Below are positions 23,957-55,659 of a DNA stretch of 64,000 nt, piece by piece; position 1 is the stretch's first letter, and each line of letters starts with the position of its first letter. The notes below the pieces were generated by a model that saw only the letters and a program-made list of their open reading frames with translations, was not told the origin of the DNA and did no database searches. Made by a program: the position numbers and the translations under genes. The DNA is taken from NCBI GenBank assembly GCA_973895155.1, contig OZ316897.1, positions 23,473,455 through 23,537,454 on the forward strand. Reading direction: 5' to 3'. The stretch comes from Marsupella aquatica (lineage: Eukaryota; Plantae; Marchantiophyta).

Positions 23957-24375
23957 CACGAACATTTTGTCAGTTATAGATGTTTTGATAAATATTGGAC
24001 ACATATCTGAATAAAGTTTCAAAAGTTTTTTCAATTTCATGCGCGCATACCTTGCTAGCGAGATCGCTAGTAAATATTGCCTACCGGTACTTGAGTGATT
24101 TCCATTGTGGATGGCATGCAATCACTTTGTGTATGTTAAACTTTCACAAAAGTTTGGTTGAATTAAATCTTTATATGTGTTGTTAATTGTTAGCGACATT
24201 GCTAGTTAAAATATGCAACATTTAGGACCCACACTTATTATACAGGAGATCCTCGCTAACATACCATCAACATTCTTATTACTTGGAAAATGTCCATTGT
24301 TCAGGTTTTGAAACCTGGAATGCGACAAAAACACGCACTCTTTAACGTCCACCTTAACGGATAAAAGAGATGGAC

Positions 24376-27300
24376 TCAACTACTGTGTAACGGAATCAAA
24401 CTCCACAGTTCACCAACAGTCAGAATTGGCTGTTTCACAAGATTGTCTCTCTCTAGATTAAGCAAAAACTTATTTGAGTACACCCAGAGGAGATGTTTAT
24501 AAGACATGTAGGGTCTTCCTCGCGTGTGCCTCTTGTAGAAGTCATCACAAGAGCAACAAGGGAAGCAACACACTTGAACCCAGTAGTTGTGTGCAATTCT
24601 AGAGTCACTCTCGTGAGTAGCGATGAAATATTGCCATCCCCATCCGTTGCCTGTGCAAATCTTGTCACTTCCAATGACTCTCATTTGTTCGACAGATGCA
24701 GATCGAATGCGTTTAAGAAGCTCAGGGGTGTTCTGGAAACGTTGCCGAACGCCTTTCCCATTTCAAGTCTTCAATCGACGATTTGGATAAGCAATGTCAA
24801 CCCTTTCGGGGAAGGCATTCACATGAATTTGGAGGTCAAGACGACTTGCAGGAGAGAATGATCTGATTGGCGTCGCATCAGAGTATGATAACCCTCTGAT
24901 TTGAAAGCCATTTTGAAGGAGAAAATCAATCTCTTCAGGGGTCAGCCTAGTTCCTCGTTGGACTTGCAGTGCCTCAGGTGGTTGCGGGAGCTGGGCAAGA
25001 GTCCTTCTTCCACCTGTTTTATGGCACTTATTATTCAGACAGAAGTACAGAAGCTGACGATGTGGGGAGGACAACCTCAATCCGTGAATGGCCACACCAA
25101 CAACTCCAGTCCGGAACGCCTTATATCCAATTTCCTTGATCAGATTACGGCATTCTTCTCTACCAAAGACACTTCGATCCACTAGTCCGTTGCACACAGG
25201 TCCACTCCCTTTCCCACTTCGTCTCAAATGCCAGGTCCCATACGAAACATCAACCTCTTCAATAAAAGGGGGCATCCCGAATCCAATCCTGACTATTTTG
25301 AGGAGATGCTATTTCTCCAACATCATTTGTAATCGGTGTTCCTTCTACATCTGTTCCAAGGCTTCGTTCTTCACCATCATCTGAGATATTGATAACTTCA
25401 CGAGGGAGAGCATCTGTCTGGCGGGTGGGACTGTTTTCATTATCAGGAATACACGACAGTCCCCCAAGGTCAGAACCACTTCTGAAACTACTGAATTCAA
25501 CGTACAGATTCCTTCTTTTCAAGCTTGACGGAGACGTCATTGTACGCAATATTTTATCATGTCGATGAGAATCATTCTCATGAATAGATGTGGAAGCATT
25601 ACCCTTCCATTTTCCTAACATTGTCCAAATATCCCCATGTAAAGGCTCTGTTCTATAGAACTCATACTTTCTAGAGGATTCAAATAGTAGATTGGATGCC
25701 TTCTCATAGGCATCCAATGATCCCATAGTATCTGCATTGCGATAGGCCAACTCAAATATTGTAGGACCATTACCACGATGACATCCTTCCATATACAAGG
25801 TGAACGCGACAATCTGTCCAACTGCTCGATTCTGATCAACTTCACATGCTTCCATCAAACCAATTCTCTTCTTCGGTTGGCACGATCGCATTGAAGCATG
25901 AGAAGATTCAGATCCCGCGCATTTTGGCATCAAGGCAGACTCTTTTGCAGTTTGTGTTTGCCACAGAATCAATGTTAGTCAATGTACGGGTCAATGTATT
26001 CAGGCTAGCGACCTCGCTAGCAGAAAGCACACTAGTTATAGACTAGTCAGGGTTAAAACAATGATATTTAGGCTAGCGATCTCGCTGGCTTAAATGGATC
26101 ATAAATGATGGATAAAACTTACCACTCAAATAAAATTGCCCCATTGTCTCCATCGCACAACCCACCATGAAATCCAACCTTGAAGGGATTTGAGCTTTGA
26201 AGGATGACAATTCCCTTCTTTCCACCATTTCTGAATGTCGTCTGCAATTCTATACGCTTCGACGTAAGTTGGGGCAATCCTTAACTTCTCCCATATCTTA
26301 TAATGCTATGCATGACACCCCTCCTTGATGCTATCCAATGTGTGTCTCCTCAGGGACTGAGAAAAATGGAAAGCATCGCTGTGCTCTTTCATAGGATTTT
26401 GAACACCACCAAAAAAACTCGTCGTACAGCAATCCAACCAGCCTCTGCATTGTCAACTATGAATCCTCCAATAACAGGATTATGCACTCCATTCTCCGAT
26501 GCCACATCTACCATCAATCGCCACGCAGTTTCAAGGGACTCGGTGTCTTCGGCTCTCAACTCACAAGTAAAAATTGTACACAGAGCCCGGTAATCGTGGT
26601 CATAAACATGTGCACTGAATGTCAACCGTCCAGTAGTGATGCAATGCATCATGTCAAAACTGACCCAAGCACCTTCCAAAACTCCTCCAGACTCCATGCT
26701 CCTCAAAATGTCCTCACCAGATCCAGGTCCGTATGTACTCATTTTGAATACATGCGCTCGATCATTCTTATTCCCTTGACCAGGAAAAAGGTACCTTTGC
26801 ACAAAAGGGATATTATTCCTTGACTGCATTTCACGAAGGGCATCAAGTTCTCCTTTTTTGGGATTATCCATCTTGATACTCCGGAGTATAGCTTGGAACT
26901 TGGGAGCAATGGAAACCACACCTATGGAACTCCAGATTTCCATCTGTTCTTCTCTCGACAACTGAGATGATGATTCCGGATGCAAAAGTGAGACAAGGCT
27001 GCCAATGGACTGGTTCCTCACACGTGTTGGAGTTGATACTGGATTTCAATCTATGGACCCCTAAAATGACATCTTCCGCAATCTTTCTCGCTGAACGAGA
27101 TTTCCCCTTCCAAACCGGATGGTCATGGAATTCCATATGCACAACCAACCTGGACATATGTATTGAAATGTGACTCTCCAAACCTGGCTTAGGGTACACG
27201 TACAGCAGTTTTGCCGGGCAATTTCGAATACAAAGTGGCCGCTCTTCACAGAATCCACAGACTATGCCACCCTCACTCACGTGCTCCCCAAGACAGAAGA

Positions 27301-28174
27301 TGTCAGTCAGTAACCCTTTCCCTCTAAACGAGCAAGCATTTTTCTCATTCGTATGCTTGAACTTCCGACATCCCAAATTCTGGCATTCAAGTATTCCAGC
27401 ACATCGGACTTTCGAGACAGACCAATGGAACCTTGGCTTTAGGTTTGCAGATGTAGTGACAAGTCGAGTCCACGGATAGCCATCGTTCTCTCGATCCATA
27501 TCTTGAAGACCTCCTCTGCGTCCGGACCCTTCGATGGGAGGAAGTTCAAAAACAACGTTACCATTGTATGTCGATGGCAGACTAGGAACCTGGCATTCCT
27601 TCCACTGATTCCCTCTTTGAAATTGTGCAAGTTCACTCGTGCCACTTATATTGAGGAAAGCGTCATAAGCACTCATCCGATACACTGTTGGCATGGTAAG
27701 CACATCCATTTTCTTGACCAATCCTCCGGGTTCCGAACCACCTCCTGACTTGGCTGACCCACAAGATGTGTCCTGCCTTAGACTATCGGGAGATATTTCA
27801 ATGATATTCGGGGCCATTTCTTTTGTAGGTGTTTCTAGATCGATCACACGAGTAGTCTCTTCTTCGGGAGGAGAATCCACATGGTCCATAATGATTTCAG
27901 GAATGTCATCTTTACTCGACACAACCTCTACATGAGATCCAACCTTCAATGTCCAAACCTTGTTGGAAGTACTACTCTCTTCTCTCAACTCGTGACTACG
28001 TGTTCCATTTTGACAATACAACTCAAACAACTTGCAGATGATATCACCATCTAGAAGTCCAAACCGAGTTGTAAGGAATGACTCTGTCACTGTCACCTCC
28101 GATGAACCTGGTGTGCTAGGAAGCACAACTACATCTCCCGTCATTCTACGCTCCAAAACAACTTTGCAATCCAT
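24376..28174 (-). pseudogene. MULE-type DDE transposase with N-terminal GCM-like zinc domain and C-terminal SWIM finger (frameshifted; intron ~25960-26123)
   Basis: KVRCAGILEC...CGFC..CPAK..HDHP; WVSFDMMH; FIVDNAEAGWIAVRRVF; DAFHFSQSL; SESSHAS; FPCCSCDDF..YKHLLWVY. GTAAG donor at ~26123. Confidence 0.78.
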
Positions 28175-28860
28175 CTCAAATCGTCCCAGACAAAATTTTA
28201 GATGACAACAAAAGAAGAAGATTATGCTTAGGATTGTCTACATGACCCTTATGATGAGACTTTAATCTCATTTCATCCCAACGGAAACAACCCATCGACC
28301 AAATTGTCAAAGAGTTTCCGTTGATGTGACCGTTGTTTTGTCTTTTACTACTTGTATCATCGGAGTCCTCATGCTAGCGAGATCGCTAGCATATAACGAC
28401 ATGCTTTATGATATATTTATAAAGATTTTCCTAGATTTTATGTATATATAGACTACGGATTTCAGGCCAGCGATCTCGCTAGCCAAAAAGTAATTTCAAC
28501 GGTCTTTAATTTTACTGTTGGGATTCCGTTGATAATAGTCAATGGGTACCAACTACGACCGACACCTGTCCTATTTTGTATGGATTACATACTCCCGGCC
28601 GTGAGAGTTGTTCTTCGCATTTTCCCAAAAGTACAACTAGTGATCTCTGCTAGGAGATTTTTGTTATTCCTTCCTCGAACTTGACATCATCTTCTGTATT
28701 CACGACTGTACCTCTTTAGGACTTCAACTGGTCTTTGTAACAGTCTGTATGGGTGTCCGGTACTGATTGTTGTTGACGTTTGTCACTCGTGCTGGGGTTG
28801 CATCCTCTGGACAGGAACACTCTTCAGCAAAGTACACTCTTTGGCAAAGGTTTTTATTTC

Positions 28861-31800
28861 ATGGAGTCGTCGTTGTCTCCAGAGAGTATTTCTTCCAGAG
28901 GATCGTTCCAGTCCAGGGAGTCAACTAGAAGAGAAACAAGGTCTACAACAAACAAGAAGGTGCTAGCATCGGGATTGAAGACTCCAAGACGACCCAAGAT
29001 GGTGACAACAGTAGATGTTGTGGCACCGGTGTTCGATCCGAGCGCTTCGGAACCTTCAACTGTTGTCATAAACCGTCATCTTTACTCTTTCGGAGTGAAT
29101 GAGTTTGGTTTTTCTCTGGCTCCCCCTCGAATTCCTCTATGCAGGATGAGGAACATGCAAATTGTTCAATCTCTGCAAAAGGATTCAACTGCGATAGACA
29201 CACTGAAGTCCAAGTTCAGGACCCAGGGTTACATTGAAGATGCGCCTCGGTTTTACGTACAAATAACCAACAAGGATGGAGAGCTCCAATTGTGTACTGA
29301 TGTGATCCGCAAAACTTGGGATGACATTTGGGTGCTGCAGAACGAGGAGTTCGAACGCGAATGTGATTCCCATGTATCTTTCACATCCTCAAAGACAAGA
29401 TGTTCTTTGTTTTTGATGGAAACCATCGACTATATTCTTGGACTCAACTTGCAGAAGAGCATCCGGAAGATATTAAGTACCATCCACGAGTTGTTTGCAA
29501 GATTTTTAAGGGTGATAAAAACTCATTTGTTCAGATCGAGTCAACAATGCACGCATTGAACAAGTGCAATTTCTAAGTATAACATTTTCTTGAAATTTGT
29601 GTTTCAGTTAATCATTTTCTGCTAGTGATCTGGCTAACATGAAAATTCTCTGGGAGGTTGACACAATGTCACGTTGAAAACTCCTGGGTTTTGGAGGCCG
29701 AATGGGTCTAGAAGATTTTGAACAACGACTTGTCAGTTTACAAGGATATCATCAATGCTGAGAATTACAAACTTTTCCAGCAGAAGATGGCAAACGTGCG
29801 GAAGGCAGCTTGGTATTCCAAGAACATGACGCTGGATGCCTGCACTTATATTCTATCCACTGCTAACATTGCATCTCAGACAGAAGACCTCAAGAAAAAG
29901 TTTGCTTTGAAGGAAGCTCAAGGGGAGCCTCTGTCGAAGGCCTCACAGGACTTAGAAATACGGGAGATGATGAAGGAGCAATTGGCTGATTGGAATGTGA
30001 AAGTTCCTAAGATCGGTCCATTACTGAATCCAGAATTTGGAGACTTTTTCAAGAAATGTGTAGAAATGCATAACTACTACGAGAATGAGAGAAAGGAGGC
30101 CCAGAGAACTGATGACAAAGGACAAGGAAATGTTTCTTGTGGTCTTGATCGAGCTTGGTTGTTCATAGGTGTGACGTCCTTATCCCCAGAACTCCGATGT
30201 ACACTCCTGGAAGCGCAGTGTCGTCTAGAGCTTTGAAAGAAGTTCTTTCATCCTGGTCAATTTTCAGATAGTGAAACGAAGCTTTGGCTTCACCGTTGGG
30301 CAGTGTGGGAGCAAGTCGAGTCAATTGCGTCTTCCCTCATGTCTGAAATTGTGTCTGAGGTTATGCCTACTGTCCTAGAGTCTCGGATCCTTAGTTCTTC
30401 ATAAAAGACCAAAGCTTTGCTCATCCTTGACATTGAGAAGGATTTTGAGGATTTCCATACTTGTGTGAAGACTCGTTTCTTCAAGCAGATTTGGCCTCCC
30501 AAGACAGGAGAGAAGATCGAGATTGCATTGTTCCGAAGGAGAGCAAAGAGATACACGTATCAAATTTTTGTAGACAGAGAAGTAGCAGACAAATTCTACT
30601 GGTGGTCCTACCGAGCTTGCTTCTCCCCATGGATTGCAGGAGTTAAAGAGGATCCTACAAGTGACAAATTTGGGGATTATTCTATGTTTCCTTGCGAGGG
30701 ATGTGAGGCTCTGAGGAGAATGAGTGAGTGGGAGATTCTTCACTGTCCATGGTATTTGGACTCGGACAAGTGGTCTGTACGTCACCTTCGACACTGCAGA
30801 GAAAGCCGCTCTTCATATGATCAATCGTGGATTCCTTCCGGAGTCTTACATCTCGGAGTCCAAATTGGCACCCACTGACGCTGAAGTTGGTGGTTGCGAG
30901 GCTATGGAAAAGGCTTGTCTTGGTGTAGCTGCAATAGTGGATAGGAGTTGGTCTTGAAAGCCAAGGAAAGGTGCAGTGAAAGACACATCCAAAGATGGGT
31001 CCCAAATATCGGGAAAGCCAAGTAAGTGTGTCAATGTTTCGCTTCATTTTCTTTTCACTATCTTATGTGTTTCTGAAGAGACAGATTCTAATAGCTATTT
31101 TTTGACAGAGAGGAGGAAGGGTACTGCTTCTGAGAGTTTGAAGAGCGGGGCAGATGATGGAGAGGAACCTCACTCCCCAGATGTCGAAGTAACAACAAAG
31201 AGCGCAGTGGATTTGGGAAGTATAAAGCGTCTGAAACAAAAGAGGAATGTCCAGATTCTGTCGGATTCGGACGATGATGAAGTTTCAGTTGCTCAAGGCG
31301 TCGCTCGGATGTGTGGGTTGAAGATGGATGGCCAGAGACATTTCCTTGCTTGCAGTAATTTGACCAACACTGCAAATTCTATCAGCGTAAAGAAAGTAAG
31401 GCCATCTTGGATGGGAGATGGAGATCGATGGATTGCTGGGATGTCCAAGAGCGTCAAATGCCCAAACCCTGTCATCATTAACGGCAAGCCATATGCTGGG
31501 ATTGGAGCACATTTGGGATTCATTTCTCTTCCAACAGGGCATAGAACACGCGTTACAGACAAAGAGGTCCCGTCCTGGAATGTGTGGAGCGAGAAGCTGC
31601 CTTATTACTTTTTTGGAGTCATGAGACCCATGCTTTCGGACGAAGGATATGTGGCTGTGCTTCATAGCTCGGATTTCAATCACATGCGGCAAATATTTAT
31701 TGCGGTCGAGCAAAAAAACAAACACGTACAACAATATACAGTTTTATTATCCACTCCTTTATGGAGAGCCGATATGGATATTGAGGTACATATTACTGAG

Positions 31801-32460
31801 CTGTTTTTGATGCGGTTTATGCTAGCGATGTCGCTAACAAATATCTTATCATTTTCAATTCGAAAAAGGTTCATTTCCTTCTTCAAATTAATGCTAGCGA
31901 TCTCGCTAACAAAGTTTCTGGGCTTTTCTAATAGAATGTCATTCTTCCTTCAGGTGTGCACTCTCATTCTGGACGTCTTCTGTTGAGTGGAATTTAATGC
32001 AAAAATTCCCAAAGACCCTGCCTATGTTCCTTTGACGTCTTCAGAAGATGCCAGGCATAAATCAATGTTGAGCGTCTGTTACCCAAAGATTGCCCCCTGT
32101 CCAACAGCGGCCGTTGCTAGATCAAAAAGGCTATCAATTGGCTTCATGCAAGCCGTGATGGAGTTCCTCACGAAGCCGAGAGATATCGTCCTTGACTGGA
32201 CTGTGTGCGATGGAAGCTCATTTTCCGCATGGGAATACTCCGGTCGGTTCGTTGTTGGTGTTGAGGACATGGACATTCTCCATTCCTGTGCTCAAAAAGG
32301 TTTAACAAGCGTTCTGGAGAGGCACTCTAGCAAGTCCAAGATGATTAAAGATCAGGAAAAGAAGGGTAATCAGGATGCTGGGTCTGATGATGAGTTCACG
32401 ATACCAGGAGATGAACAGGCTGGACCTTCAAGCGAGAAAGACGAATTCGACCAGGAGTAA
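28861..32460 (+). pseudogene. ParB/Srx-like N-terminal domain fused to a C-terminal beta-class (N4/N6) DNA methyltransferase-like domain; introns ~29564-29657 and ~31786-31953
   Basis: RIPLCRM...FVFDGNHR (29415-29429); AHLGFISLPTG at the motif IV position; RPMLSDEGYVAVLH; FLTKPRDIVLDWTVCDGSS..SGRFVVGVE as motif I. Several frameshifts and stops. Confidence 0.72.
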
Positions 32461-32465
32461 AGTAC

Positions 32466-32903
32466 TTGGCCTCTTCTGGTGTCGGACTCCCAATTTGGTT
32501 TCTTTTGTTTTATTCATTTTGTTGCTCTTCCTCAACTGATGCCGGTGGTTGCTTCAGTGATAGGAGGGTGGATTGGTTTTCTGAGGAGAGATTTCATCTT
32601 CGAAAGGAAGTGGAGGAATCCATCGTGGTTACTCCAGAGAAGCCTTTCACTCTTCCGTGCTATGCTGAGAAGTCAGCGAAGGAGGTTGATGACGCTCCTG
32701 TGGTCTTGACCTGGGAGGCGAAAGGGCTTCGCTCAATCAGAGGAGCTCGTAGATATCTGGATTGTTCAAGGTTTATTGACAATGAAGCGGGGACAGTTAG
32801 CCAGTATTTAGATGAGTCTGCCGAGTCTACTGAGAGGGAGACCAGTAGCGATCCCAGTAGAAGTTCGATATCTGATGATTCAGAAGATGAGGTATATGAC
32901 TAA
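32466..32903 (+). CDS. Short conserved ORF/exon downstream of the ParB-MTase gene
   Basis: ERFHLRKEVEESIVVTPEKPFTLPCY..LTWE is conserved with 48830-49140 (ERFHLRRKFLRKVLVTPEKPFVLPSY..FTWE). Confidence 0.45.
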   Translation: MASSGVGLPIWFLLFYSFCCSSSTDAGGCFSDRRVDWFSEERFHLRKEVEESIVVTPEKPFTLPCYAEKSAKEVDDAPVVLTWEAKGLRSIRGARRYLDCSRFIDNEAGTVSQYLDESAESTERETSSDPSRSSISDDSEDEVYD

Positions 32904-34900
32904 TGCAATAGCTTCAGTGTTAAACTGGCTGTACTGCTTACCATCGACTCTTATAGTTTTTTCTGTGAGCCGGTTTTTGGATATCCATACTTTCAATGTA
33001 TAAAGAATGACCATGTTCTCATGAAAGTGCCTGCTATTCGGTTATTGTTTTCCAATATTGTTGTGCGCAGAGTCAAGTATGGAATGCATATGACAATCAT
33101 GCATGATTTCCGTAGTTATAACACTTTCATTGCTTTGAGAGAGGGAAAACAGTGAAATTTGGTCGTTTTTTCCATTAATGTGGTTGTGAGTTCGACCATA
33201 AAATGTGCCTCGCTAACAATGCTGCCTCACTAGCAAAAATTCCTGTTTGCTCGCACCGTAAAATTCCTCTCTAATTCTCACTTCTAAAGGAAAAAATTGA
33301 AATGTAGAGCCTACTCATGCTGATAACCTGTTGAGTACTACATAGCATAGTCTTCTCATTCATGTAGGGAAACATATATACATAGAGGTAATTACTCAGG
33401 TGGTTGTAGAAACTACCTTAGGTTAGTGGTTACACCATGATTTGGAGTAGACTTAACCTTAGGTTCCACCAGCTTTTAAATATGTGGAGAAGGTCCACAT
33501 TTGCAATGAGAATTATTCAGACGGAGGTCAAAGATTAATCAGATATTGGTCATCGTGACTTATTTCCCGACCAATCAGGTCCGCCTCGCTAGCCATTTCC
33601 AGTGTCGCTAGCAAAATTTCCTGTTTTCTCGTTGAATTGACAGCCGAGGATTGAGGAAAACAACTGCCAGATTGGCATTCCAGTGTCAAGAACATTAAAT
33701 TTAGTGGTTGATTGCTGCCTGACTGTTTTTGGATTAATTCAAAGGAAGAATGGTGTCTTTCCACCAGACGTCTTCAACATCTCACCCAAGCAAATTCAAG
33801 CCCAAAAGAAGAGAGAACAGATTAAGCGCAGCTACTATGGTAACAGCAGGAGTTTTTATGATAGCAAGGTGTTCTCCTTCATTTGAATACTTACCTAATG
33901 CTCTGATTGTTATTACTTCTCTCTCAAGACCTTCTACACATGAATCTATTTTCTTGAAGTAGGCATGGGCCCAGCAGAAGCAACACACGCATGCTACACT
34001 ATTCCTTGCAGAACTATGCTTCCTTCTACGTTCACGCGCACGGTCTATGAGCTTTCGGATTCAATCATGCGGTCAACGTAGCGTTTCTACTGCAAATACA
34101 GTCCACTTTCCTGCCTTGTCCGATAATCCTTCACGATAGTACTGTACAGTGCATCATTCCATTCTCGCGTCATTTGAGAATTATTCCCTTACGCCTTCCC
34201 TAACTCCAGAGTAGCTAACAAGCTTTCGAGCACGTTTCACGACCGTATCTTGCGAATCTGAGAAGCTCAGACAGTTGAGATGCAGATTGAACTTCATATC
34301 GTTCTGGTCGAATCCAGACTGTCAACTCCCTTTGAAGCAGAAGAACATGGCCACTTTACTAGAATTGAATTATCTAATCTTCGACATGGATGTATTCGAA
34401 GATCTGAATACATCCATCAGTCTCGGCCAAAGGCTTCCTGCAAGTCGATGAACTCGAAGACTCATTGCTTGAAGTTTTCTGCTGGTGGAGGTCGCCATCC
34501 GCGCATTTGATCTTTATGCCCTTGATTTTCGTCTCCTGTCACCAATGTGAGTTCCCTTCCAGTACCATGTTCACAGCAAGGCAGCTACTGTATGCAAACT
34601 TTTCTTTTGATCTAAGGACAATACTCAACTAAGATGTCAAAAGAGGTTTCTACATATCAAGCCAACAGCTTGATTTCACGCACCTATAATTTCGACACTC
34701 AAAACGAAACTTGCGTGACATTTCTCTTACATGAAATGGTCTTTCAGCCAGAAGAGGGCTAGGTACAACCCCTAATTGCAGAATCTCAAAATTAATGTTA
34801 CAGAATTGCGACACCCAAAACCTGATTGTATCTGCGCTGCCAGTGACTACTGATTTGAAGCCACTTTCCAGCCAGCCCAACACAGCTTTTCAACCTGGGT

Positions 34901-38299: not shown

Positions 38300-40324
38300 T
38301 GTGCTTCTTAACACGAAAAAGGAATCAAACTTGAAGTTCAACTCAAGCCTTGATCACATAAGCCTCATAGCAGGAAATTCCCGCAACTATAAATGTCACA
38401 CCGTGATGCTGGAACAAGAGTTTCTGTTTAAAAGTAGGTACGCATAACGTTGAAATCGCTCTTCAGTCTCATTACCTGAAGGCCGTGTACAAGAACAATG
38501 GCGGATGCCAATACCAATCAAACCGGAAGATGAAGGATAAACTCTGCAAATCAAACGTCTTAGTTGAGAATGTATTCAAGGTCGTTTGGTCACATCAAAT
38601 CCAACAAAATGACATGCATACAAAATTAATCATACCTGGCTGAGGACTGTTGTCTAAAGCGCTCCATATCCAAAAGTTCCATCGAGTCAGCTCCGTTCCC
38701 GTGCCGGGAATACGGAGCTCAATGGTACAGTTTTGAGAAATACGATCTTACCTGTTTGACAAAGGTTCAAATCAGTCTAAGTAGTGCAATCTTGCAGAGC
38801 CCTCAAATTTCAAGTCTCATCTTTCCTTCCCATGGACTAAGGAAAGAATATTCATTACGCGAAGGCTCTGTTGGGGAAACCTTGCCCGGGCAGAGGAATC
38901 TCAGCTCAGCGTAACAGTTGGAGGAAGCCTAGAAGCATAGCAGTAGCGGTATCTTCTCCAGGATCAATTCCTCCTGCTGGACTCTTTTACGAATCATCCC
39001 AGCTTTGCCATCAAAACTTGAGAATCAAAACTACAAGTTTTGAGAAGAAAAAGTATGAGAAGATCATCCATCCAAACCCCAAAGCAACCCACCGTCATAC
39101 CTGCACATTGCCCTCTGAAAAACTATGGCGCGAGTGCTCTTGTTTATCGCCCTCCAGGAAAGAACCCTTTCCAACTGAAGTGTCCTGCATACCAAACGAA
39201 GAATTGACGACATTTCTTCAAAGACGAACTTGTGAACAAGTGTTATGCAGACCGTGTAAGTAGCAAATTGGGCAGGCTCGACAATTCGTTCAGAACAACA
39301 AGTTGAAGCAAGTGGCAACAAAATTGATCTAGATTGTAACGGGAAATCAGGAGACGGGCAGCAGGAGACGTCATGCAAGAAATGAGGAGGACTTGAACCA
39401 GGATGGACAGTATCCCGGGCTGAAAAAGAGATTCTGTCCCGCTTCCTTGGGCGCCCAGAGGTGAGAAGTATAGTTGCCCAGCAATCTAAGGTTGAAACGC
39501 AGAAGAACATCCAGTATAGCTAGGGCCTTACTAGGAATTCTCTGCCCAAAGGACATGACGAGAGGCTGTGTAAAAGTGGTAACGCGAACCCAACAGGGAT
39601 CACTGGATTCGTCAGCATGTAGCTACGCACAGCTCGATACCAACTCCCCGAGAAGCAAACTATAGCAATTCAGCAATCCGAAGCCACTACGACAAGTAAT
39701 TCTTAGCTGATTGTGAATTCTACAAGGATTGTTAGCTCATTAAATTAACTGCTGAACCACCATCCAATAATACATTCTTAATTTTGGTTTCTTTTATATT
39801 TTGGAGCATAATTCATATTTGGCGAGCCTTTACATGGTGGATTAAGGACTTCCTTGGTAGTCTGAGTGTCATTTTACTGAGTGTCATTTACTTTTCATCC
39901 CAAGTCATTCTTGGTGGGGGTCTCCGAGATTCTGAGATGGATGGACTCGGGTCATTTGGGGCAACAGTATTTGTACTCGGCGAGTGTCTCCGAATTGGTT
40001 TTGGTTCTCTTGTTGTTCACGTCCGCTTTTACCCATGGTTTCCTAGTCGTAGTGTCGTTACCTTTTGACCTTTAGTCGTACTCGGCGAGCCTCTCTGAGA
40101 TGGATTTGGGCCTCGTCGAGGATGGTAGATCTGTACGGACATTGTCGTTCTTTACAAACATGCAATCCGTACGGAATTTGATTGTATGAACATTGAAAAA
40201 TACTGCACGGTGAGGCTTTGCATGCACTTTTGGGTCCATCATTGTATTTCGGCGATGGTCTCTGACATCAGATGTGGGATAGAACCAATTTGGCTCCTTC
40301 ATTTGAAACGGAATACCTTTAATT

Positions 40325-40690
40325 TCATCTCGGAGAGGGTCTATGAGAGATACAGTGCATGTTGTAGCTAATCCTTTAAAACTGTTAAGAGGGTCGACAA
40401 GTTGTGTCGTCTGGCCAAAGTACGCCCACCACGTACTCCATCTCAGAGAGGGTCTCCAAGAGGCTGGGTCTCATCTGGCCCCGCATCTGGCGACCTTTTT
40501 GACCCAAGAAGCAGTCCAGGAGAATTGTTGTCTGGCCACTTGGGGCATCTCAAAGAGGGTCTCCGAGCGACTGGGTTGCAATCTCGCTTCCCTTTCCACC
40601 CGAGATGCAATTGACAATTTCTGTAGTCTGGCCGTTTGGACCACACCACTCCATCTCAGAGAGGGTCTCCGAGAGACTGGGTTGTGATCT
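40325..40690. repeat. Degenerate ~107-bp tandem repeat with a TCTCAGAGAGGGTCTCCGAGA quasi-palindrome core
   Basis: Core at ~40328, 40441, 40547 and 40654; related copies at ~40080 and 42613. Confidence 0.65.
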
Positions 40691-40763
40691 CACTTACATG
40701 GCATACTTTTCTAACGTGGAGTTCACTATGGTGTGGGACTTTTTTTCTACTTCTCATATTTCA

Positions 40764-40784
40764 CCCTAAACCCTAAACCCTAAA
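40764..40784 (+). repeat. Interstitial plant telomere repeat / telo-box (CCCTAAA x3)
   Basis: ACCCTAAACCCTAAACCCTAAA. Confidence 0.7.
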
Positions 40785-41832
40785 CTCCTCTTTACTAAAA
40801 CAAAACCCTAAACATAATTGGCTGCCTTTATCCAAGTCTCCTCCAACAATCCCTCCTTGATCTTCTCGACTCCATTGTGCCCTTCCCCCTTCTCTTAACC
40901 CCAATTTCCTCTTTTAGTAAAGCCACCCAAATTAATGATGACAAGTCTCAGTACGGCCCATACTCCATTGTCGGCGATGGTCTTCGAGAATGGTATAATT
41001 GTGGGCCACCATTTCCTCTTTGAGTTGAGGCACCGAGATGTTGACACGTCTTAGTAGGCCTCGGAATGAAATGACAGCAAGGGTCTCCTAGATTCGAACT
41101 CGTTTTGAGCTGTTGACTGAAAACCCTAATTGCACCCTAAACTAGTGGTCAGTACTCGCGTGAGCATTGCATACTTTCTTGTTTGAGCCGTTAACAACAT
41201 GTATGTATCCAAGTATAGTTAGGATCTCCCGTATCTATTGCATACTTTAGTGTTGTGCAGTACGTGCGGTACTTTATTCCTTGAAGCGGATGTCATTCCT
41301 TCCTTGTCACTCTTCCACGGTGTTCCATTAGGTTTGGCACGTGTCTGTCACTAATCCTCACTCTGCCTCACTCTTCTGCGCAATCCCTCACTCGTCCGCA
41401 ATCTCATCCGCGCTCTTCCTCAATCTTTGCATATTGGTCTGCGCAATCTCTCACTTCTCCGCGCTCTCATCCACATTGTTCCTGCTCTTCTTCAGTCTTC
41501 CCACTCACAGTGTACTCTCTTGTGTGACCCTACTATTGTGTCTACTGGATTGCGTTGGTGTTTTGAGGCAGTGAGCTAGTGGTAGCTTCTTTGTGAGCAT
41601 TTGCGTTGGTGATTCTCTCAGGTTTGATCTTGGCTCCCCCTTTGTCATGATATGTAAAATCCAGTTGTACATGAATCGAATGTGTGAAAGGCTGAACCCC
41701 GCATATCCTTGAAAATTGGCTCTCCCGGCAGGGCTCGCTGAGATCTTGTCAAGTTTATAGGTCGAGCTTACGTTAGAGCTATATTGCCGAGTAATAAGTA
41801 ACTCTTTCATTTCTCATGTAATCTTAGGTAAA

Positions 41833-42546
41833 ATGCCGACGAGGAAAGACTCGGCTGGAGCAAGACCTGTTGGCACCAAACTTCTCAGTAGAGTAAGAAA
41901 GCACAATCCAAGTCTCCTTTGCCAGTCACATCTCGATTGACACACTCACAGGGTGGTACCCTTATGGAGTCAGTCGACTCCAAGAGGAAGTTTGAGCCAA
42001 AGCAGATATCATTTGAGCCTATTGGAGTGGTGGAATTCATTTGGCTGATATTGCTGAGAAGGGAGCCTATGAGTCAATCGTCTCCAAGTATGAGACAAAG
42101 TTTAGTAAGGATCCGCCCCGGATCCCATTGTGTCGGCTCATGCCAATGGAGGCAATCAAGAATCTTCAGGATGAGTCTGTTGCAAAATTAAAGAAAGGTT
42201 TCAAAGAGAGCGGCTATGTTGTAAAGCTCAGCAAGTTCCACATCACTGACTTCAATGAAACCGGGGAAACGCAGACAGTGACAGATTTCAAGCCGTTTTG
42301 GGACCCTCTATGGACTAAGCTCAATGAATAGTTTGAGCAAGAGTGCGATGCATCAGAGGAGTTCAAAGTCCTTAAGGACAAGATGTTTTGGGTTTTTGAT
42401 GGAAAACATAGATACACAGTCTGGTCCATAGTTGCTTCTGAGTATCTGGATCAATTGCAATACCATCCGTGCGTCAGGTTCTCTCTTTTGAACGCTGGGA
42501 AGGACGGATTCAAGAAGGTTGAGCAAGCAATGCACGCTCTCAACTT
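41833..42546 (+). pseudogene. Second ParB-like domain copy (N-terminal exon)
   Basis: PPRIPLCRLMPM..KGFKESGY..WDPLW..KDKMFWVFDGKHR..YHP..MHALN, then GTAAG at the same position as the first copy's intron. Confidence 0.8.
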
Positions 42547-43036
42547 GTAAGTACTCTCATTCTTGTCTTTTTGGAATATGGTATTACCCATTTGTGTAAA
42601 CCTTGTGCGCCATCTCAGAGAGCCTCTCTGATATTGCCGTTATGAAAAGGCTCTTCAATGCTAGACCTTGGGGGTCTCACTCTAAGAGGGCTCTCATAAC
42701 ACGCTCGACATTTTTGGCTATTAAACACCCTAAAAAATAAGAAGAAAAATTTTTTTTTTAACTATTTTTCTACCCCTATCTTTTTCAAATATTATAAAAA
42801 TATTCCCCAAAATCATTTCTAAAACCCTATCTTCTCTTATAATTCTCAAAAATATTTTTAAAAAATCCTAATGTTCTTCTACATAAATTTAAAAGTATTC
42901 TAAGTCTCAACCTAATAAACAAACCCTGTACTTACTTTTGCGTGATGGGTAAAAAGTAAATAAGTGAGGACCCTGGGTGTTAGATCTAAGAGTATTGTTT
43001 GTCTTATATTCTCGAGGAGACCCACCCCGTGCGTCC

Positions 43037-43305: not shown

Positions 43306-44720
43306 ATTGGAACTGATCGAGTAATCCTACACACCTCTAAGGTTGAACTCAGGCAGGCTAATTTCATGGTGTGTCTGATTGGGATATCACGAAAAGCTAA
43401 AATCTCAATCCACAGGATGCATGCAGGCCTATTAAGATTCCTTAGTTAGAAAACCCCTCCCTAACTCTACTGCTTCCGGAATGACATACAAAGGCCCAAA
43501 AGAAATGAATTTTTTGCCTTTCCCAATCTTTCAGTTCTTTTAGTGCACCTTTGGCGTAGAGAAATCCAAAAGGATGAATAGGGCATGTCAAAGTGTTAAA
43601 GTCCAAAGAAATAAATCAAAGTGTTATGGGATGCGTATTTTGGTAGTCCATAGTGATTTTTTCTGGCTGTAATAGTATTTTATGACCTCATGAGCAATAA
43701 TTGAGTTGCATCTATGCTTTGACACTCCTTAATGGAATCTTGGAACGATGTAATCATGCACCTCAGAGCTTGAACTTAGGTGGGCTAACTTCATGGTGTG
43801 TACCTTTAGGATAAGGCAAAAAGATAAAATTTCAGCCGATTGGATCATCCTCATTCACCATAATTATACTTCCAATATTGGGTAGGTGTGCAACGTGGAG
43901 AACAATGCAATAATAATAAATGCATGTCATAAATCAATAACATTATTGAATGACAATAATTGCATTTTTCCTTCATAAATTATAGCATAGAATGACGACA
44001 ACATACAATGATGTGAGAACCCAATATGCTCAACCGTGTGCACCTTTGCTACTTTGGCATTATTTTCATGACCCACAATATATAATATGACGTTAGATAA
44101 GGGTGCTTGTTTTAGCTTAGGTCTCCTATCAACTGAAGCTTGCTCTTAAGTATAGCTTCTTTGTGGATGGCTATTTTGATTGCACACTCAGCTTGAGCTT
44201 AATTATCTTCAATCTGGCCTCTTGCTTGATCATGGGTCATCACCCACTAGCTTCAGTGCAGCCTTACCTCCCGCTTTACCTAGTGCCCATATCACCAAGC
44301 CCACCCTAATCTTTGGCCTCAAAGGGTGTTCTTTTCCTTACCAATGAAAACAAAAATATATCCAAATAAATTGACATGATATACCGTTTGAGGAGTATGT
44401 TGTCATTATTTATAAAATCTCCAAAACCTTGAAAGGGCTCTTTTATATACCCCAAATGATATAGGGTATAACCACTATGACAGCAAACAGTTACTCGTAA
44501 CAGCAAATGGGTGGTAAAAATTTTGGATTTTTTTTTGGATTTTTTTTTTAATTTGAAATTCTTTTGGGGGAAAAATATTAAATTTTTTTTGTGAGTCGAT
44601 TTTTTTTTGGCTAGCGCCCGGAGCTAGTAATAGTATCGCCTTACACTAGCAAAACATTGTCATGTTTTAAATTATTTTGAAAATTGTGACTTTAATGACA
44701 CATTTTTAGATTGTATAGTT

Positions 44721-44777
44721 TGCTCGTAACAGTAAATTTTTGCTCGTAACAGGAAAATTTTTGCTCGTAACAGTAGA
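44721..44777. repeat. 20-21 bp tandem repeat TGCTCGTAACAG(T/G)AAATTTT x3
   Basis: Seen directly. The reverse complement resembles 33232-33253 and 33610-33632. Confidence 0.75.
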
Positions 44778-44819
44778 TCTTTTTGCTATTTGCTGTCACA
44801 ATGAAAACCCTCAGTCAAG

Positions 44820-45216
44820 TTACATCGAAGGTTAGGGTCCCAAAAGATCTAAGTTCAGGCCTTTGTCTGCAACCGAGGACCCTTCAATCACAAACCTCAT
44901 TGGACCGCAGAGTCTGAAGAAGGATCTTGTTTCTGAAGTTGCATTTGCTGGGAATGCAAGACTGCTGGTCGGCTTCATGCAGTCTGTCCTAGAGTTAATT
45001 TCTTGTCCGGGAGCTATTATTATGGACTTGACGGTTGGGTCAGGAAGTACATTTGTGGTTGGGGATTTTTGTGGTCGTTTCATTCTTGGGATTGAGAATC
45101 GCAAGGAATTTGTTTCTATTGCTGAGAGGACATACACTGACTTGCTTCTCCCAAAAGAAACAAGTGAGGCTGGTCCAAGCAAAGACGTGGGGAAAAAAGT
45201 GAAAGATAAAGTTTGA
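44820..45216 (+). pseudogene. Second N4/N6 DNA methyltransferase-like C-terminal fragment
   Basis: FMQSVLELISCPGAIIMDLTVGSGSTFVVGDFCGRFILGIE matches the PGDxVLDPFxGSGSTxxAAxxxGRxFIGIE motif I pattern. Confidence 0.8.
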
Positions 45217-45383
45217 TCTGTTCTGAATTTTGATTCTAGAGAAGTTGATGGAGCTGATGAGGAGGGTGGTACTGATGTACATAATGAAGATGGGAAAAGG
45301 GATGGGGAGAATTCAGAAGGAGAAACGGAAGATTCAGATTCTTCTGAGTAATGCTCGTAAGCTCCTTTACATTACTTTACTTT

Positions 45384-48300
45384 TGTTGTAACCCATAGGT
45401 TAGGTCAACATCCAACCCTAGTTAGGATATTAAGGTAGTTACTATAACTACCACTACATCTATACCTAGGGAGGTGTTAGTAAACCCCCATGAATGGATG
45501 AACCTTGATTGTTGGTGTACTTGACATTCTCTCTCCTAAGAATTATCTCCACCTCTCAACACGTTATCAGCACGTAGCTCTCCATGAGCAACTTTCTTTG
45601 AGAAAAAAGACCACATTTACATTAAATGTTCATAGATTTGACACATTTATTTCACGGTAGGAGGAGAATACGTTGAAAAATAGATTTCTCGTTCTTTTGT
45701 TGTGTTGCCCATTCTACTGCCCATTGTTGTGTTGCCCATTGTTGCAAGGCTATAGACAATTGGGAAATTCTCTTCAAGGAAATGCAAACAAGGGCCAGCC
45801 GAAGAATGAATTTTGGAACTCAAATTTGGCTCAATGAGGAGTTAGGAAATAAGACATAATTGATTAGGTGTGCCCAAAGAGAGAATATGAGGAGAAAGAA
45901 CGTTGATGATTGACAATTCTTCCCCCCAACCAAATCCTTTGATGCCCTTCGCTCGACTGTGACGGACGCACAGAGCAATGCTATGCAAACTTGGAACTAT
46001 CAGTCAAATCTTCTTGGTGACATTGATATCAACGATATGTGGACCACACAATTCAAATTGATACCTTGGGAGACCCTAAACAGACCTGCACCACGCAGAG
46101 TATCAAATGGATAACAGTTATAACATATTCAATGGTTCACAAATACGCTCTCCAAGCTACCTTCGAGATTTGAACCTCTTTGTCAACCATCAAGGTGATT
46201 GAAGCACTTACAACCTGAGATTGAAGCATAAGGGCTTGAGTGCGATAGTAACAGCAAAGGCATTGGGGGAACAAAATTAGGGAGGAGTTCTTTTATTGTA
46301 ATTTGATTGAGAAGGGCTGCAGCACATGTGACTCGCTACTGCCTCCCAGAAGCAGAATATACTTTGGTCAGTAGAGAGAGACGCGACCCTGCAGAACTTG
46401 CTGCTGCCATTGCTTAACTCAAGTTTTTCGCCAAAGAAGATATAACAATCCAGAAATCAGACACAAGCGGAGACAGGGAACAGATTGACCTCATTCAATT
46501 TGCAAAGTTGAAGGGTCCTAGTGGATGCAACACTGGACGATAGCCTTCCGCCCTGCCCAAGCTCGCTCAAGAACCAATCTATAAATCATCAAATTAGAGG
46601 AGAATTTTCCCCTATGGACCCTCAATAGGTGCCCCAACTGGTTACCAGGATTTCAAAGTACGAGACGTAAGGACTAAAGGAGGAAACTGACACACAAGAT
46701 AGAGTGAACAACATCAAATTGGATAAGGTGGTGTATTGATGTGATAAGGACCGGTTTCTCCAAAAGCAGAAAGTGACCCGACCAATAGAGAGAAGATTTC
46801 AAATCAAAGACAAAAATGCACATTAAATACAAAGGCCGCATTTGACGCAAGGAACAAGAGAGGAACAAGCGGTTGCGCCCCATTTGCCCCAATTCACAAA
46901 GGAAAGTCATTTCCCATCATTGCAACATAGAACAAAGAATTTTGTCACTCCAAAAACAAAATTGCAATTGCATAATTAAGCCCTTAATTGGGTCATCAAA
47001 ATAAATGAATGGGTGGTAATTAACCACTAATCAAATGGGAAAACAAAAATCTACCCCACTACCCTATAAATCAAAATGTAACATTTCATAAATTTGAGAT
47101 TGGAACTTTATTTCACAGTTCAATGCGTTGAAATAGGAAAGGGGTAAACAAAAATGGCCTAAAATGAACACGAGCATTTAATTTTTTTCCTCAATGATGA
47201 GAAACAAATGAATGCTAATTCACAATTAGTTGGTTTCCAGGTATACCATATATCAAGAAGTAAAATGTGGACCAATACACGATTGAAGTATAAGTTGCTT
47301 GAATGGTATAAATTCATACTTATTAAAAAGAGCAAATGTTTGGAACAAAATATGAAAGATGTATAAGAAGGAACAAACATGACATGGAAGGATTGTCTGT
47401 TTGCTTGATTGACATAATTTACTACAATGAAAACTCCCTAGACCTCGATTCGAGGGGGAGAAATAATGTATTGCAATCACATAGCCATTAAGGCATTCAA
47501 ATACGAACTGACAATATTAATTACTAATACAAAGTATAGGTAGAGGTTCACCCCCTATATCTAGTGGGGATAGTTGTTAAGCTTACCATGGAGGATATAG
47601 GGGCCAACCTCATATAAGATATATATATATATAAGGTATTTAGACATGACTTAAATTTTGGAATTCCAAGAATAACGTGACACCTAGTCATGGGTGACGA
47701 ATGCGCATAAAAATGAGAATTTGAGATTTGAGGGGGAGAGAAGTACACCCTCCTCGTACGCATACATTGGATTATTTGAACTCCATTTTGCAAATGATAT
47801 CAAATGAGGAAGTGCCTTTAGCACATGCTTTGAAATTAACTGCACAAGTGCTCTGAGCACATGAAATACCAATGATGACCAATCATGAAAAATACTTTGT
47901 AAAAACAAATAAGATAATTGGAGAGAAGAGAAATTCTCCTTGAGATTTGCAAAGCCTTTGATGGAAGTGTGTGAAAATCCCTAATGTTCACCACCATGGC
48001 TTTGCCAATACTACTTATGAACATGATATGTATATATGTTGGCCAACGATTTATGTCACATGGGAAAAATGATTTCCACATATATGGATCCAAAAGGGAA
48101 ACTGAAGGCAATGGAATACCACCAAAAATGATGGAAGACTAACTTATGCAAGTTGGTTGCAGAAATGGCACATTTGATGATAAACACCATGAAGGAAAAC
48201 TTGAGATCTAATGAAGAACACAAATGAAGACTCCCGTGTGAAGGAAGAATGTGGGACCAATCAGAAATGAAAACCCAAGATTTGTCTCTTCATGCTTCAA

Positions 48301-48755
48301 GCCTCAAACTTCCCCCACTTAAGAGTTCATATGTGACTTACTCCCAATAGGAGACCAATATATTTAAGACTTGTATTTTTACCCCCCTTGAAACATATCC
48401 AAAATGACTATAAATGTAACATTGGTGGTGGCACTCTTTCCCTTAGAAGAAAGCAGGAGGGTTTTAATGAGACCACACCAATGGATACCAATTATGTACT
48501 ACATTGATCTATCATTTACGGTTAGATGTTAACCCTAGTGTGGTTGCATTATCTATGATAAAACAACCAAGGGGGAGTGTTGTAACCCATAGGTTAGGTC
48601 AACATCCAACCCTAGTTAGGGTATTAAGGTAGTTACTATAACTACCACTACATCTATACCTAGGGAGGTGTTAGTAAACCCCCATGAATGGATGAACCTT
48701 GATTGTTGGTGTACTTGACATTCTCTCTCCTAAGAATTATCTCCACCTCTCAACA
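45384..48755 (+). mobile_element. Non-autonomous Ty1/copia (Bianca-type) LTR element
   Basis: 178-bp LTRs at 45384-45561 and 48578-48755 with one mismatch seen, TSD ACTTT, PBS CGTTATCAGCACG, PPT AAGGGGGAG. No long internal ORF. Confidence 0.9.
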
Positions 48756-49547
48756 ACTTTATGTTTTTTTTTACTTGGAAACACCAATTATTGGAATATC
48801 AAGAAATACTTAGTGTTTCAACTGACTCGCAGGCCAGAGTGGAATCTTCGTGAGAGGTTTCACCTACGAAGGAAATTTTTGAGGAAAGTCCTTGTTACCC
48901 CTGAGAAACCGTTTGTATTGCCTTCATACGTAGAGTATGCCGCTCGCAAAGAAGAGAGTAGGAGAACCTTTACCTGGGAGAACAAACTAAGGCTTACGAT
49001 TGAGATGAGGTTCAGATAAAAAGTTTATCCGTCATCCCTTTGTCAACAACATGGCACATAATGAATTTATAGACGATGAAGCAAAGTCTACGGATAGATC
49101 GGAGAGTAGTGGGCCCGGTAGTGGGTCAGAATCTGGAGATTAGAATAGAATAGATGAGGTGTATTCATCCTTTTTTAACAAATTACCTCCTCCAAATTAG
49201 TAGCACCCGGTGCTACTTATTATACTCATCACATTGCTTTATATAAATACAAAGTGGGAAAGGTTTGATTTTCCATAAATCATTTTTGGAAGTCAAGTGT
49301 ACTGAAATGCTGCTATAAATGTTAGTACATGTACTAATGTATGATGAAAATCCAAATGTCCGTGACTGTGATACTTAATCGTTATACTGACTGGAAGTTT
49401 CTCTTTATTGGGGAAAGAAACAGAAAATTTAGGGTAGAGGTTTAGCTCGCACCCTCTACGTTCAACACCCTCTCCGTTTGACACCCTCAGTCTCCGTTCA
49501 AGAATTTCCAGTAGCTCCTTTGCCATTCGCGCTGCAAAGACGTTGCT

Positions 49548-54609: not shown

Positions 54610-55659
54610 TTGTTCTAGAGACCATGGAGAAAGGGAAGCAGGTCCTTCAAGAGAGAACTTTAGGCCCCCCGAAGTTGGAGGGAAAATCTTTGAATGACTC
54701 TCTGGCTTTGGAAGTCCCCATCGTTGAGACTCCTCACTTTGAGACCTCGACTGAGAGGAATTGACTATGGCTGGCCTCAGAAGAGGCGATAAGCCTTCAA
54801 GAAAAATCAATTCCTTTCGCTGATTTGTCTCCTCCCCGGTCTTTCCGAGAACGGTTCTCTATTCACGATCCGGATCCTTCTGATGTCTATAGGGTTGGAC
54901 AGACGGCGTTTTTCAGGGACATTCAACAGTGGACCGGGTGAGTTGGATTTTCTGATTCCAACATACCAAATTGCAGGTTGAGGAGTCGCCTTCCAGGACC
55001 ACGTTTTTTGTCTGAGCGGGATGATGGATTTTGTCAAGATGAGGATCAGTTCACTATCGGACTCAATGACGAGTGTGGATCATTGACGTCTTGAGATTGT
55101 AGGAAATCTAGAGTCTTTTTGAAGACTTACAAGATAGTATATAGCGCCTGGCGCTATCGCCATCACAGAAGGAAGGAGTTAGGGTGCAGTGTCGATCCTT
55201 GATGGTTTGTTTCTAGCTTACGACTTCCTTGTTGTTTAGTCTTTTTTACCACTCGTGAGCTCTCTTGACATTTTGGAGCTTGAAGTCAGAATAGGTATCA
55301 TCACCTTCCCTTACGTTTGTGCCACAATGTAAAGCACTAGCCGGATTATTTCTTGGACGAAGTTATATGTTAGTTACCCGGAGCGCCTTTGGGATTAGTT
55401 TGTTCAGCGACGTATTCCTGGATGTTTTGGATACTGTGACATGGGTTTTAAAGTAGCGCCAGGCGCTACTAGTATATCTCAACATTTTGACACACTTTAA
55501 TTTGAAGGACCATTCTTTACATGTTATCTCGATCCTTTTTTATATGGCAAATATTGTGTGAATTTCCACACTTATTTTACTGTTATGTTTTCTTATTTCT
55601 TGTTACTGTTTCCTATTTCCTATCACGGAGAAAAACCTTGATGGATTGTGCTTGACTCT

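Follow-up and report, generated by a model that had tools for sequence, protein, structure and literature searches.

A decayed Mutator-type transposon of the liverwort Marsupella aquatica with a predicted ParB-like and methyltransferase-fold accessory gene

The combination of a ParB-like region with a DNA methylase is already known as transposon cargo from algae. In Ectocarpus, the element Sola1-1_Ec32 carries, opposite its transposase, a gene for a 1,104-amino-acid (aa) protein with a ParB-like region and an N4/N6 methyltransferase (MTase) domain, for which binding and modification of its own element has been proposed, and the same account cites Iyer et al. 2011 for green algal cases (PMC12477816). 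The Plavaka elements of Bostrychia bear PAG2 (an N6-MTase with a SET domain) and PAG3 (a ParB-like region with a 2-oxoglutarate oxygenase) beside arrays of inverted repeats, and homologs of the PAG genes are described on Mutator elements of Chondrus, the ParB assignment having an HHpred E value of 0.29 (bioRxiv 10.1101/2025.02.11.637652). The VANC proteins of VANDAL elements bind motifs that are specific to each family and lie in introns and intergenic DNA (PMC5735166), and phage MTases of the ParB-terminase kind have also been described (PMC4738411). According to the published passages, marking of the element's own DNA by accessory genes with ParB and methylase parts has so far been proposed, not tested. 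The present analysis concerns a 64-kb stretch of Marsupella aquatica DNA (OZ316897.1; hereafter the window, in which all coordinates are 1-based positions), where a decayed transposon holds a Mutator-like element (MULE) transposase, gene A, and an accessory gene, gene B. A first reading made from the letters without database searches (the sequence-only reading) had taken gene B for a ParB-MTase fusion.

The interpretation favoured here, which we rate at about an even chance, is that the window holds a broken copy of a Mutator-type transposon whose gene B is likely spliced, has an MTase fold that lacks the catalytic aromatic residue and likely has a ParB-like N-terminus, and that the product of gene B would bind the element's own palindromes for the benefit of its expression or mobility, rather than methylating DNA.

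Gene B and the repeated element that carries it

The model of gene B comprises five predicted exons between 28,861 and 32,903 (Table 1), amounting to about 1,197 codons with two frameshifts and five internal stops. The decay had been recognised in the sequence-only reading, whose estimate was about 1,100 codons. Its span of 28,174 to 32,460 needs correction: gene B begins at 28,861, and 32,460 is probably not its end, since the TAA at that position falls within the GT donor of an intron, after which comes a fifth exon, previously missed, in the same phase as in a paralog. Three introns have GT..AG ends, and the claim of an intron-containing gene is borne out by the spliced junction of exons 3 and 4, which agrees with annotated liverwort proteins. 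The acceptor of intron 1 is degenerate in the window copy; most of the other copies compared read CAG at this acceptor (29,654-29,656) and lack the stop at 30,402, and the reading frame runs on from exon 1 into exon 2 across this intron. The codon positions of introns 1 and 4 are shared with paralogous relics of the window. Over 154 aa exon 1 shares 42% identity with the relic at 42,092-42,544, where no frameshift occurs at the corresponding place, and over 57 aa exon 5 shares 46% identity with 48,819-48,986; exon 5 is also weakly similar to the Riccia protein P0081 (pairwise E 0.005). An FIDxEA-type motif and PxxLPxYxE occur in the C-terminal exon of both relics (32,559-32,900 and 48,833-49,080), with a similar arrangement in P0081. 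In P0009 and P0090, a single annotated protein contains both pieces of exon 2 and the MTase. That the ParB-like exon 1 and the MTase share one transcript is a prediction drawn from the intron alone.

The N-terminus of gene B is likely ParB/Srx-like at the level of its motif. The best matches of the 59-aa piece around DGNHR are both weak, namely the ParB-like family phrog_1033 (E 0.0045) and the DGQHR family TIGR03187 (E 0.013), and a still weaker match (E 0.16) links the region to DUF1015, which we take to be a member of the ParB clan. The canonical ParB form is GxxRxxA; the GxxR motif is present twice in the window (DGNHR at 29,415-29,429 and DGKHR at 42,398), and its alanine is not retained in gene B. 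A score of 16.1 bits for a phage ParB profile on the window copy, against 6.8 for the best shuffle, was discounted as circular because the family had been chosen for its match to that very piece. Several results speak against the ParB assignment, and would suit a different account in which the DGNHR region is not ParB or forms a separate gene, the MTase-like part being the sole real cargo. The region has no PF02195 match in Pfam and no sequence match in the PDB; an AlphaFold model from three rows had a pLDDT of 38; an independent phage ParB profile, built on 47 sequences, scored the region at 0.9 bits, less than the best shuffles, with hhalign probabilities of at most 14%; and the full-length protein was not found in the protein databases searched, where no entry joins the ParB-like region to the MTase (longest match 516 aa, longest cluster member 568 aa). 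An atlas search with residues 85-179 of exon 1 returned matches of 0.85 at most, and word-indexed protein searches with MTase exon 3, the ParB-like region and alignment A1 (995-2,840 aa only) returned no longer relatives, which is weak evidence. What makes that account very unlikely in our judgement is that the best families for the 59-aa piece are those of ParB-like and DGQHR type, that intron 1 shares its codon position with the 42-kb relic and in most copies has an acceptor across which the frame continues, and that the Ectocarpus protein has the same domain order and a similar length (PMC12477816). The support for the ParB domain of the sequence-only reading is weak and at the level of the motif.

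Gene A is a decayed MULE-type transposase of the DDE class. Its core has as best ESM Atlas match a MULE cluster (score 0.94, 179 of 256 features) in which 62% of members carry PF10551, and the ten best family matches all belong to the same family or clan; gene A itself has no Pfam match, PF10551 included, and no PDB sequence match. Its Cys/His-rich N-terminal region may be a GCM/WRKY-like zinc finger and the CxC...H motif of its tail may be SWIM-like, both judged by sequence pattern, and the candidate residues D, D, DxxH and E were likewise placed by the pattern of MULE transposases. Zinc-finger DNA-binding motifs such as SWIM are described for MULE transposases (PMC6446971). The head-to-head arrangement proposed from the sequence was found as described, gene A being divergent from gene B with 686 bp between the first ATG of gene A (28,174, minus strand) and the start of gene B (28,861, plus strand).

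When 23,960-34,880 was divided into 30 bins, contigs from each of four public runs covered every bin, many of the records being divergent, so that the element represents a repeat family, dispersed and multi-copy as a MULE should be. In one run, X1, there were 2,488 contig records, 450, 620, 768 and 650 of them at identities of 99% and above, 95-99%, 90-95% and below 90%, respectively, depth not being equivalent to copy number. A 997-nt contig of a second run (X6, record 29), with 100 differences and thus about 10% diverged, bridges both gene starts (28,120-29,097). The linkage of genes A and B therefore extends beyond the window locus, as the sequence-only reading required, and outside the window it rests on this one listed contig. 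The left side of the element adjoins the end of a repeat of long terminal repeat (LTR) type at about 23,956, and its right side reaches toward the stop codon of a pentatricopeptide repeat (PPR) gene of the DYW type, which lies only about 20 bases from the repeated element. MULEs are described as having terminal inverted repeats, missing in some families, and a target-site duplication of 8-11 bp (PMC6446971); no convincing example of either was found in the searches made here. A 10-bp match between 23,953 and 35,025 was rejected as a pair of termini since it falls within the end of the LTR and within the PPR gene, and a joint of 24,217 to 34,662 in X1 was not used as a junction, one of its sides being only 21 letters long. 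A tentative gene C lies in the repeated stretch, adjacent to half sites of P1 (a palindrome treated below); it has no informative Pfam match, and its membership in the element is tentative as well. A 935-nt contig of X6 with nine differences covers 33,959-34,880 at a depth far above that of neighbouring pieces, and for this reason the gene C stretch may belong to a separate repeat or to one that was amplified more recently.

The methyltransferase domain and its motif IV

The identity of the C-terminal domain as a beta-class amino-MTase fold, with motif IV before motif I, can be regarded as settled. With the read-through domain as query, a full HMMER search returned 85 matches at E<=0.001, mostly fragments, each the representative of a cluster at 50% identity; P0084, probably a false match, is counted among these 85 and among the 47 considered below. 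Of 39 aligned family members, 19 match PF01555 at E<=0.1, and the family profile finds the beta-class enzymes M1.HpyAVI, CcrM, MboIIA and rotifer N4CMT (E 1.8e-09). The MTase pieces of the window copy have no Pfam match of their own, and the 45-kb relic alone passed the PF01555 cut-off (26.8 against 26.7 bits, E 6e-06). An AlphaFold model of the relative P0005, built from 57 rows, has a mean pLDDT of 74 with a core above 90; compared with CcrM (6pbd) it gives a Z score of 18.8 and an rmsd of 3.8 over 222 residues. The 11 best rows of the comparison are without exception beta-class DNA amino-MTases, to which Foldseek also relates the model at E 3.5e-13. The prokaryotic-type MTase claimed from the sequence is upheld by these results.

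The family departs from the catalytic form of motif IV, [D/N/S]-P/L-P-[Y/F/W]. Among the 47 matches that cover the motif, none has the aromatic residue at position 4, whereas the proline is retained in 45; the first position is A in 12, Y in 11, F in 9, D in 5 and S in 4, with D or S in nine of the 47, so that even the serine of the SLPT quoted earlier is a minority state. This first position is variable in the clade of the window copy, and the Riccia clade retains the aspartate (DLPS, DMPT, DPPT). In an alignment with two phage MTases, xLPT[G/N] falls at the place of their DLPYG and DLPFG, from which it would follow that 'LP' is probably ancestral and that the change consists in the loss of the aromatic. 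Since the matches are representatives at 50% identity, the state that they share is unlikely to be decay. The S-adenosylmethionine (SAM)-binding motifs I and II are mostly retained in the aligned family, with the aspartate of motif I in 38 of 43 members, its glycines in 33 and 38 of 43, and the acid of motif II in 34 of 42; in the window copy a cysteine replaces the first of these glycines. Binding of SAM may thus be retained in the gene B protein.

It is in the light of these motifs that the proposal of a working self-marking methylase has to be considered, that is, of an active amino-MTase which, with a non-canonical active site, would write N4-methylcytosine (4mC) or N6-methyladenine (6mA) on its own element, as has been proposed for the algal Sola1-1_Ec32 (PMC12477816). 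The entire beta-class fold and most of the SAM-binding residues are retained, the first aspartate survives in the Riccia clade, and a conserved PxWNxWD (W in 42, N in 44 and W in 39 of 48) could supply an aromatic or an amide. Yet the family-wide loss of the catalytic motif argues against the marking model: no position-4 aromatic remains in any covering match and the first position is variable in the clade of the window copy, in a motif whose tyrosine has been modelled as stacking on the target base (PMC10406627) and whose change from SPPY to APPA abolishes the activity of rotifer N4CMT (PMC8885841). The window copy, albeit a dead one, moreover shows decay of the 5-methylcytosine (5mC) type. 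When it was compared with other copies (40 of 69 rows listed), 27 of the 40 listed majority differences were C/G to T/A in the window copy, and 19 of these 27 transitions are located at CG or CHG, where 42% would be expected (p=0.003); the copy is dead, with decay at CG and CHG sites such as host 5mC would give. A self-methylating enzyme consequently seems unlikely to us, and the MTase domain is likelier to be a pseudo-enzyme than to have a non-canonical active site. The sequence-only reading had itself allowed that the atypical motif IV may mean altered or lost catalysis; its working self-marking methylase is not supported in the form proposed.

Gene B may derive from a phage or bacterial MTase of the DLP[Y/F] type, as the alignment suggests. 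Nine of the 19 true family matches that were looked up carry names, those of the liverworts Calypogeia fissa and Riccia sorocarpa, and none of these names is algal. In a quick tree of 38 rows with SH-aLRT support only (31 of the 85 matches, one cluster member, two window rows and four prokaryotic or phage sequences) the window copy is closer to Calypogeia than to Riccia; being a quick search only, the tree says nothing on the donor or the order of events. Scans of viral contigs and prokaryotic genomes yielded no relatives of the MTase, and a metagenome scan yielded three loci: a bacterial MTase, a false match, and a short distant relative that contains an intron. The distant relative (contig L002, 650-1,220) has DIPE at motif IV and is likewise without the aromatic.

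Palindromes, paralogous relics and the role of gene B

The non-coding parts of the element are populated by an 18-bp palindrome, P1, with nine sites where 0.29 would be expected, a number reached in none of 100 shuffles; all nine lie in introns or intergenic DNA and none in exons. Relic 2, which has its own ParB-like exon, contains nine sites of a different palindrome, P2 (TCTCRGAGA-NNN-TCTCYGAGA; 0.13 expected), one of them in intron 1, so that intron 1 holds the respective palindrome in both the window copy and relic 2. A third type, P3 (TAGCGCC-N-GGCGCTA; 3 against 0.00 expected), occurs in both the MTase relic (44.8-49.0 kb) and the middle-region relic (55-56.5 kb). The P1-P3 patterns were derived from the same sequence in which they were counted; their clustering is evident in an unprompted repeat search also. 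Given that paralogous relics carry different palindromes, the palindrome seems to vary from one gene B subfamily to another, and three relics each with a palindrome of its own would provide matched pairs of protein and site. The same observation bears on the 'second copy' of the sequence-only reading. All the motifs quoted there are present (FVFDGNHR, SLPTG, DWTVCDG with GRFVVGVE, and IMDLTVGSGST..GRFILGIE at 45,019-45,100), but since the ParB piece at 42 kb and the MTase piece at 45 kb have different palindromes, the second copy probably consists of two relics from separate subfamilies. Neither relic 2 nor relic 3 has a gene A homolog nearby in the window. Intron 4 of relic 3 is interrupted by an insertion of about 3.2 kb (45,384-48,755) flanked by 178-bp direct repeats that are 99% alike, and upstream of its MTase exon (44,490-44,782) there are four copies of TT(A/G)CTCGTAACAG, one of which is the palindrome GTTAC-TC-GTAAC, a fourth motif type.

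How these parts might act together can be outlined as follows. The transposase would move intact copies by cut and paste, and gene B would be transcribed divergently from it; the product of gene B would form a dimer that binds the palindromes by its ParB-like, middle or MTase part; and the bound protein would keep the element open or aid synapsis without methylating it. An anti-silencing or transposition-helper effect of this kind would be comparable to that of VANC. A more elaborate version, to which we attach little probability, is that of a second, independently evolved anti-silencing system of bryophytes, in which a ParB-like clamp with a dead MTase loads at subfamily-specific, parS-like palindromes in introns, spreads from them and shields cytosines from 5mC, co-evolving with the palindromes.

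A number of points, in addition to those raised above with regard to the ParB-like region, weigh against the palindrome-binding interpretation. The steps of binding and anti-silencing are drawn from sequence and from the analogy with VANC, and no DNA-binding domain, helix-turn-helix included, was found among the exon 2 pieces in family searches. The shuffle significance of the palindromes is overstated, as the patterns were read from the sequence itself. Transposase adjoins only one of the three relic groups in the window, and the linkage elsewhere is that of the single listed contig; many of the 85 MTase matches are fragments, perhaps from dead copies, and the retained SAM motifs with PxWNxWD are compatible with non-canonical activity. 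Finally, the palindromes could be sites of the transposase. If they were bound by its N-terminal zinc finger, gene B might be a maintained passenger with an unrelated role, for example in protein-protein or RNA binding. The zinc-finger motifs of MULE transposases (PMC6446971), the P1 sites in the intron of gene A and near the left end, and the inactive MTase domain described in DIRS1 retrotransposons (PMC4738411) are all in keeping with such a view. Against this, the sites are spread over the whole element, including the introns of gene B, rather than being confined to the ends, and they differ between gene B subfamilies, so that the transposase explanation, too, strikes us as improbable, and binding of the palindromes by the gene B protein is preferred.

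The surrounding DNA is repeat-rich and eukaryotic. Gag and pol of a Ty3/gypsy element at 1.2-7.2 kb form open frames with one stop codon between them and are followed by an 881-aa frame without a Pfam match (1,195-10,181, plus strand). The PPR gene at 34,901-37,498 (minus strand) encodes an intact-looking protein of 865 aa with E, E+ and DYW domains and three internal repeats of 303 bp. Four copies of another repeat (16.4-20.2, 20.2-23.96, 49.7-54.6 and 61.0-64.0 kb), 84-98% alike, contain coiled-coil-rich frames of 470-661 aa without a recognisable Pfam family and are possibly a non-autonomous LTR element. An inverted pair (56,750-57,300 and 59,600-60,120; 231 nt, 92%) with 26-bp tandem units encloses about 2.9 kb, perhaps another DNA element.

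Table 1. Positions of the element, its genes and the paralogous relics in the window
Feature	Position	Strand	Details
Repeated element envelope	23957..34880	.	30/30 bins covered in 4/4 runs; ends undefined
Palindrome P1, GYTAGCGA-NN-TCGCTARC	24054..31910	.	24,054; 24,189; 26,004; 26,072; 28,373; 28,466; 29,621; 31,821; 31,893
P1 half sites	24,253; 33,210; 33,586; 33,605
Gene A, decayed MULE-type transposase	24376..28174	-	frameshifts, stops, one predicted intron ~25,980-26,122
Degenerate CxC...H motif (CSCDDF...KHLL)	24487..24555	-	sequence; no Pfam match
Candidate catalytic residues of gene A	25898..26661	-	D (SFD, 26,655), D (IVD, 26,454), DxxH (26,377-26,366), E (ESSH, 25,909)
Cys/His-rich N-terminal region (CQNLGC, CGFC, FHDHP)	27116..27385	-	sequence; no Pfam match
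Gene B exon 1, likely ParB/Srx-like region	28861..29563	+	RIPLCR 29,128; DGNHR 29,415; frameshift ~29,389
Gene B exon 2, middle region, no assigned fold	29657..31021	+	stops 29,709, 30,234, 30,402, 30,955; frameshift ~30,778
Gene B exon 3, MTase N-half	31109..31785	+	degenerate motif IV SLPTG 31,525-31,539; PxWNxW 31,576
Gene B exon 4, MTase C-half	31954..32456	+	motif I DWTVCDG 32,194-32,214; motif II acid; stop 31,984
Gene B exon 5	32558..32903	+	PEKPF.LP.Y.E and FID.EA motifs, acidic tail
Gene C (tentative), decayed frame with CxCCxC stretch	33500..34570	-	within repeated region, next to P1 half sites
Relic 2, ParB-like exon 42,020-42,547	39909..42633	+	own palindrome P2
Relic 3, 3' part	44490..49215	+	MTase exon 4 44,836-45,347; exon 5 48,833-49,040; P3 at 44,612, 49,201
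Relic with middle region 55,641-56,311	54610..56510	+	tblastn E 1e-15; P3 at 55,142, 55,454

Comparison with known systems

The MTase part of gene B shares its fold, and the position of motif IV before motif I, with CcrM (6pbd), M1.HpyAVI, PvuII, rotifer N4CMT and Marchantia DN4MT1, and with the phage MTases of the DLP[Y/F] type it shares the DLP-x-G register and a downstream W-D. It differs from the beta-class enzymes in lacking the aromatic of motif IV, whereas N4CMT and DN4MT1 are host genes that have kept SPPY and TSPPY, the latter according to the report on Marchantia (bioRxiv 10.1101/2021.02.12.428880); the link drawn earlier to these 4mC enzymes is accordingly one of fold and not of motif. 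The prokaryotic fusion is exemplified by a phage contig (L025) that encodes a 618-aa protein with ParB_N and a DPPY beta-class MTase. Such phage fusions have the same order of a ParB-like region followed by a beta-class MTase, and differ in having no introns, an intact DPPY and no middle region of about 500 aa. Contig L025 is distant from the gene B family (4.6 bits) and is for that reason not established as a donor.

Among transposons, the closest in layout is Sola1-1_Ec32, with which gene B as predicted shares a length of about 1,100-1,200 aa, a ParB-like region joined to an amino-MTase, placement on the strand opposite the transposase and residence on a large DNA transposon. The likeness seen here is one of layout, and the present element differs by its MULE-type transposase, its bryophyte host, the family-wide degeneration of motif IV and its subfamily-specific palindromes. 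The Plavaka elements likewise are giant DNA transposons with ParB-like and amino-MTase cargo, inverted-repeat arrays proposed as self-binding sites and a ParB assignment that is weak too; there the ParB-like region and the MTase belong to separate genes with other partners, while here a single gene is predicted and the palindromes are dispersed. No report of ParB-MTase transposon cargo in a land plant was encountered in the literature searched, which mostly omits subscription journals, and within it neither the cargo on a land-plant MULE, nor the family-wide loss of the catalytic aromatic, nor subfamily-specific palindromes were found in print. The gene B family thus extends this type of cargo to land plants and to MULEs.

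With regard to function, the nearest parallel is that of VANDAL and VANC, where a MULE also carries an accessory gene and short non-coding motifs differ among related families. In the published account anti-silencing was experimentally shown for VANC, whereas for gene B it is inferred; the motifs of the present element are palindromes of 15-21 bp, and gene B showed no domain of the VANC type. If gene B does protect the elements that carry it, it would constitute a second such system beside VANC and possibly a sequence-specific epigenetic tool.

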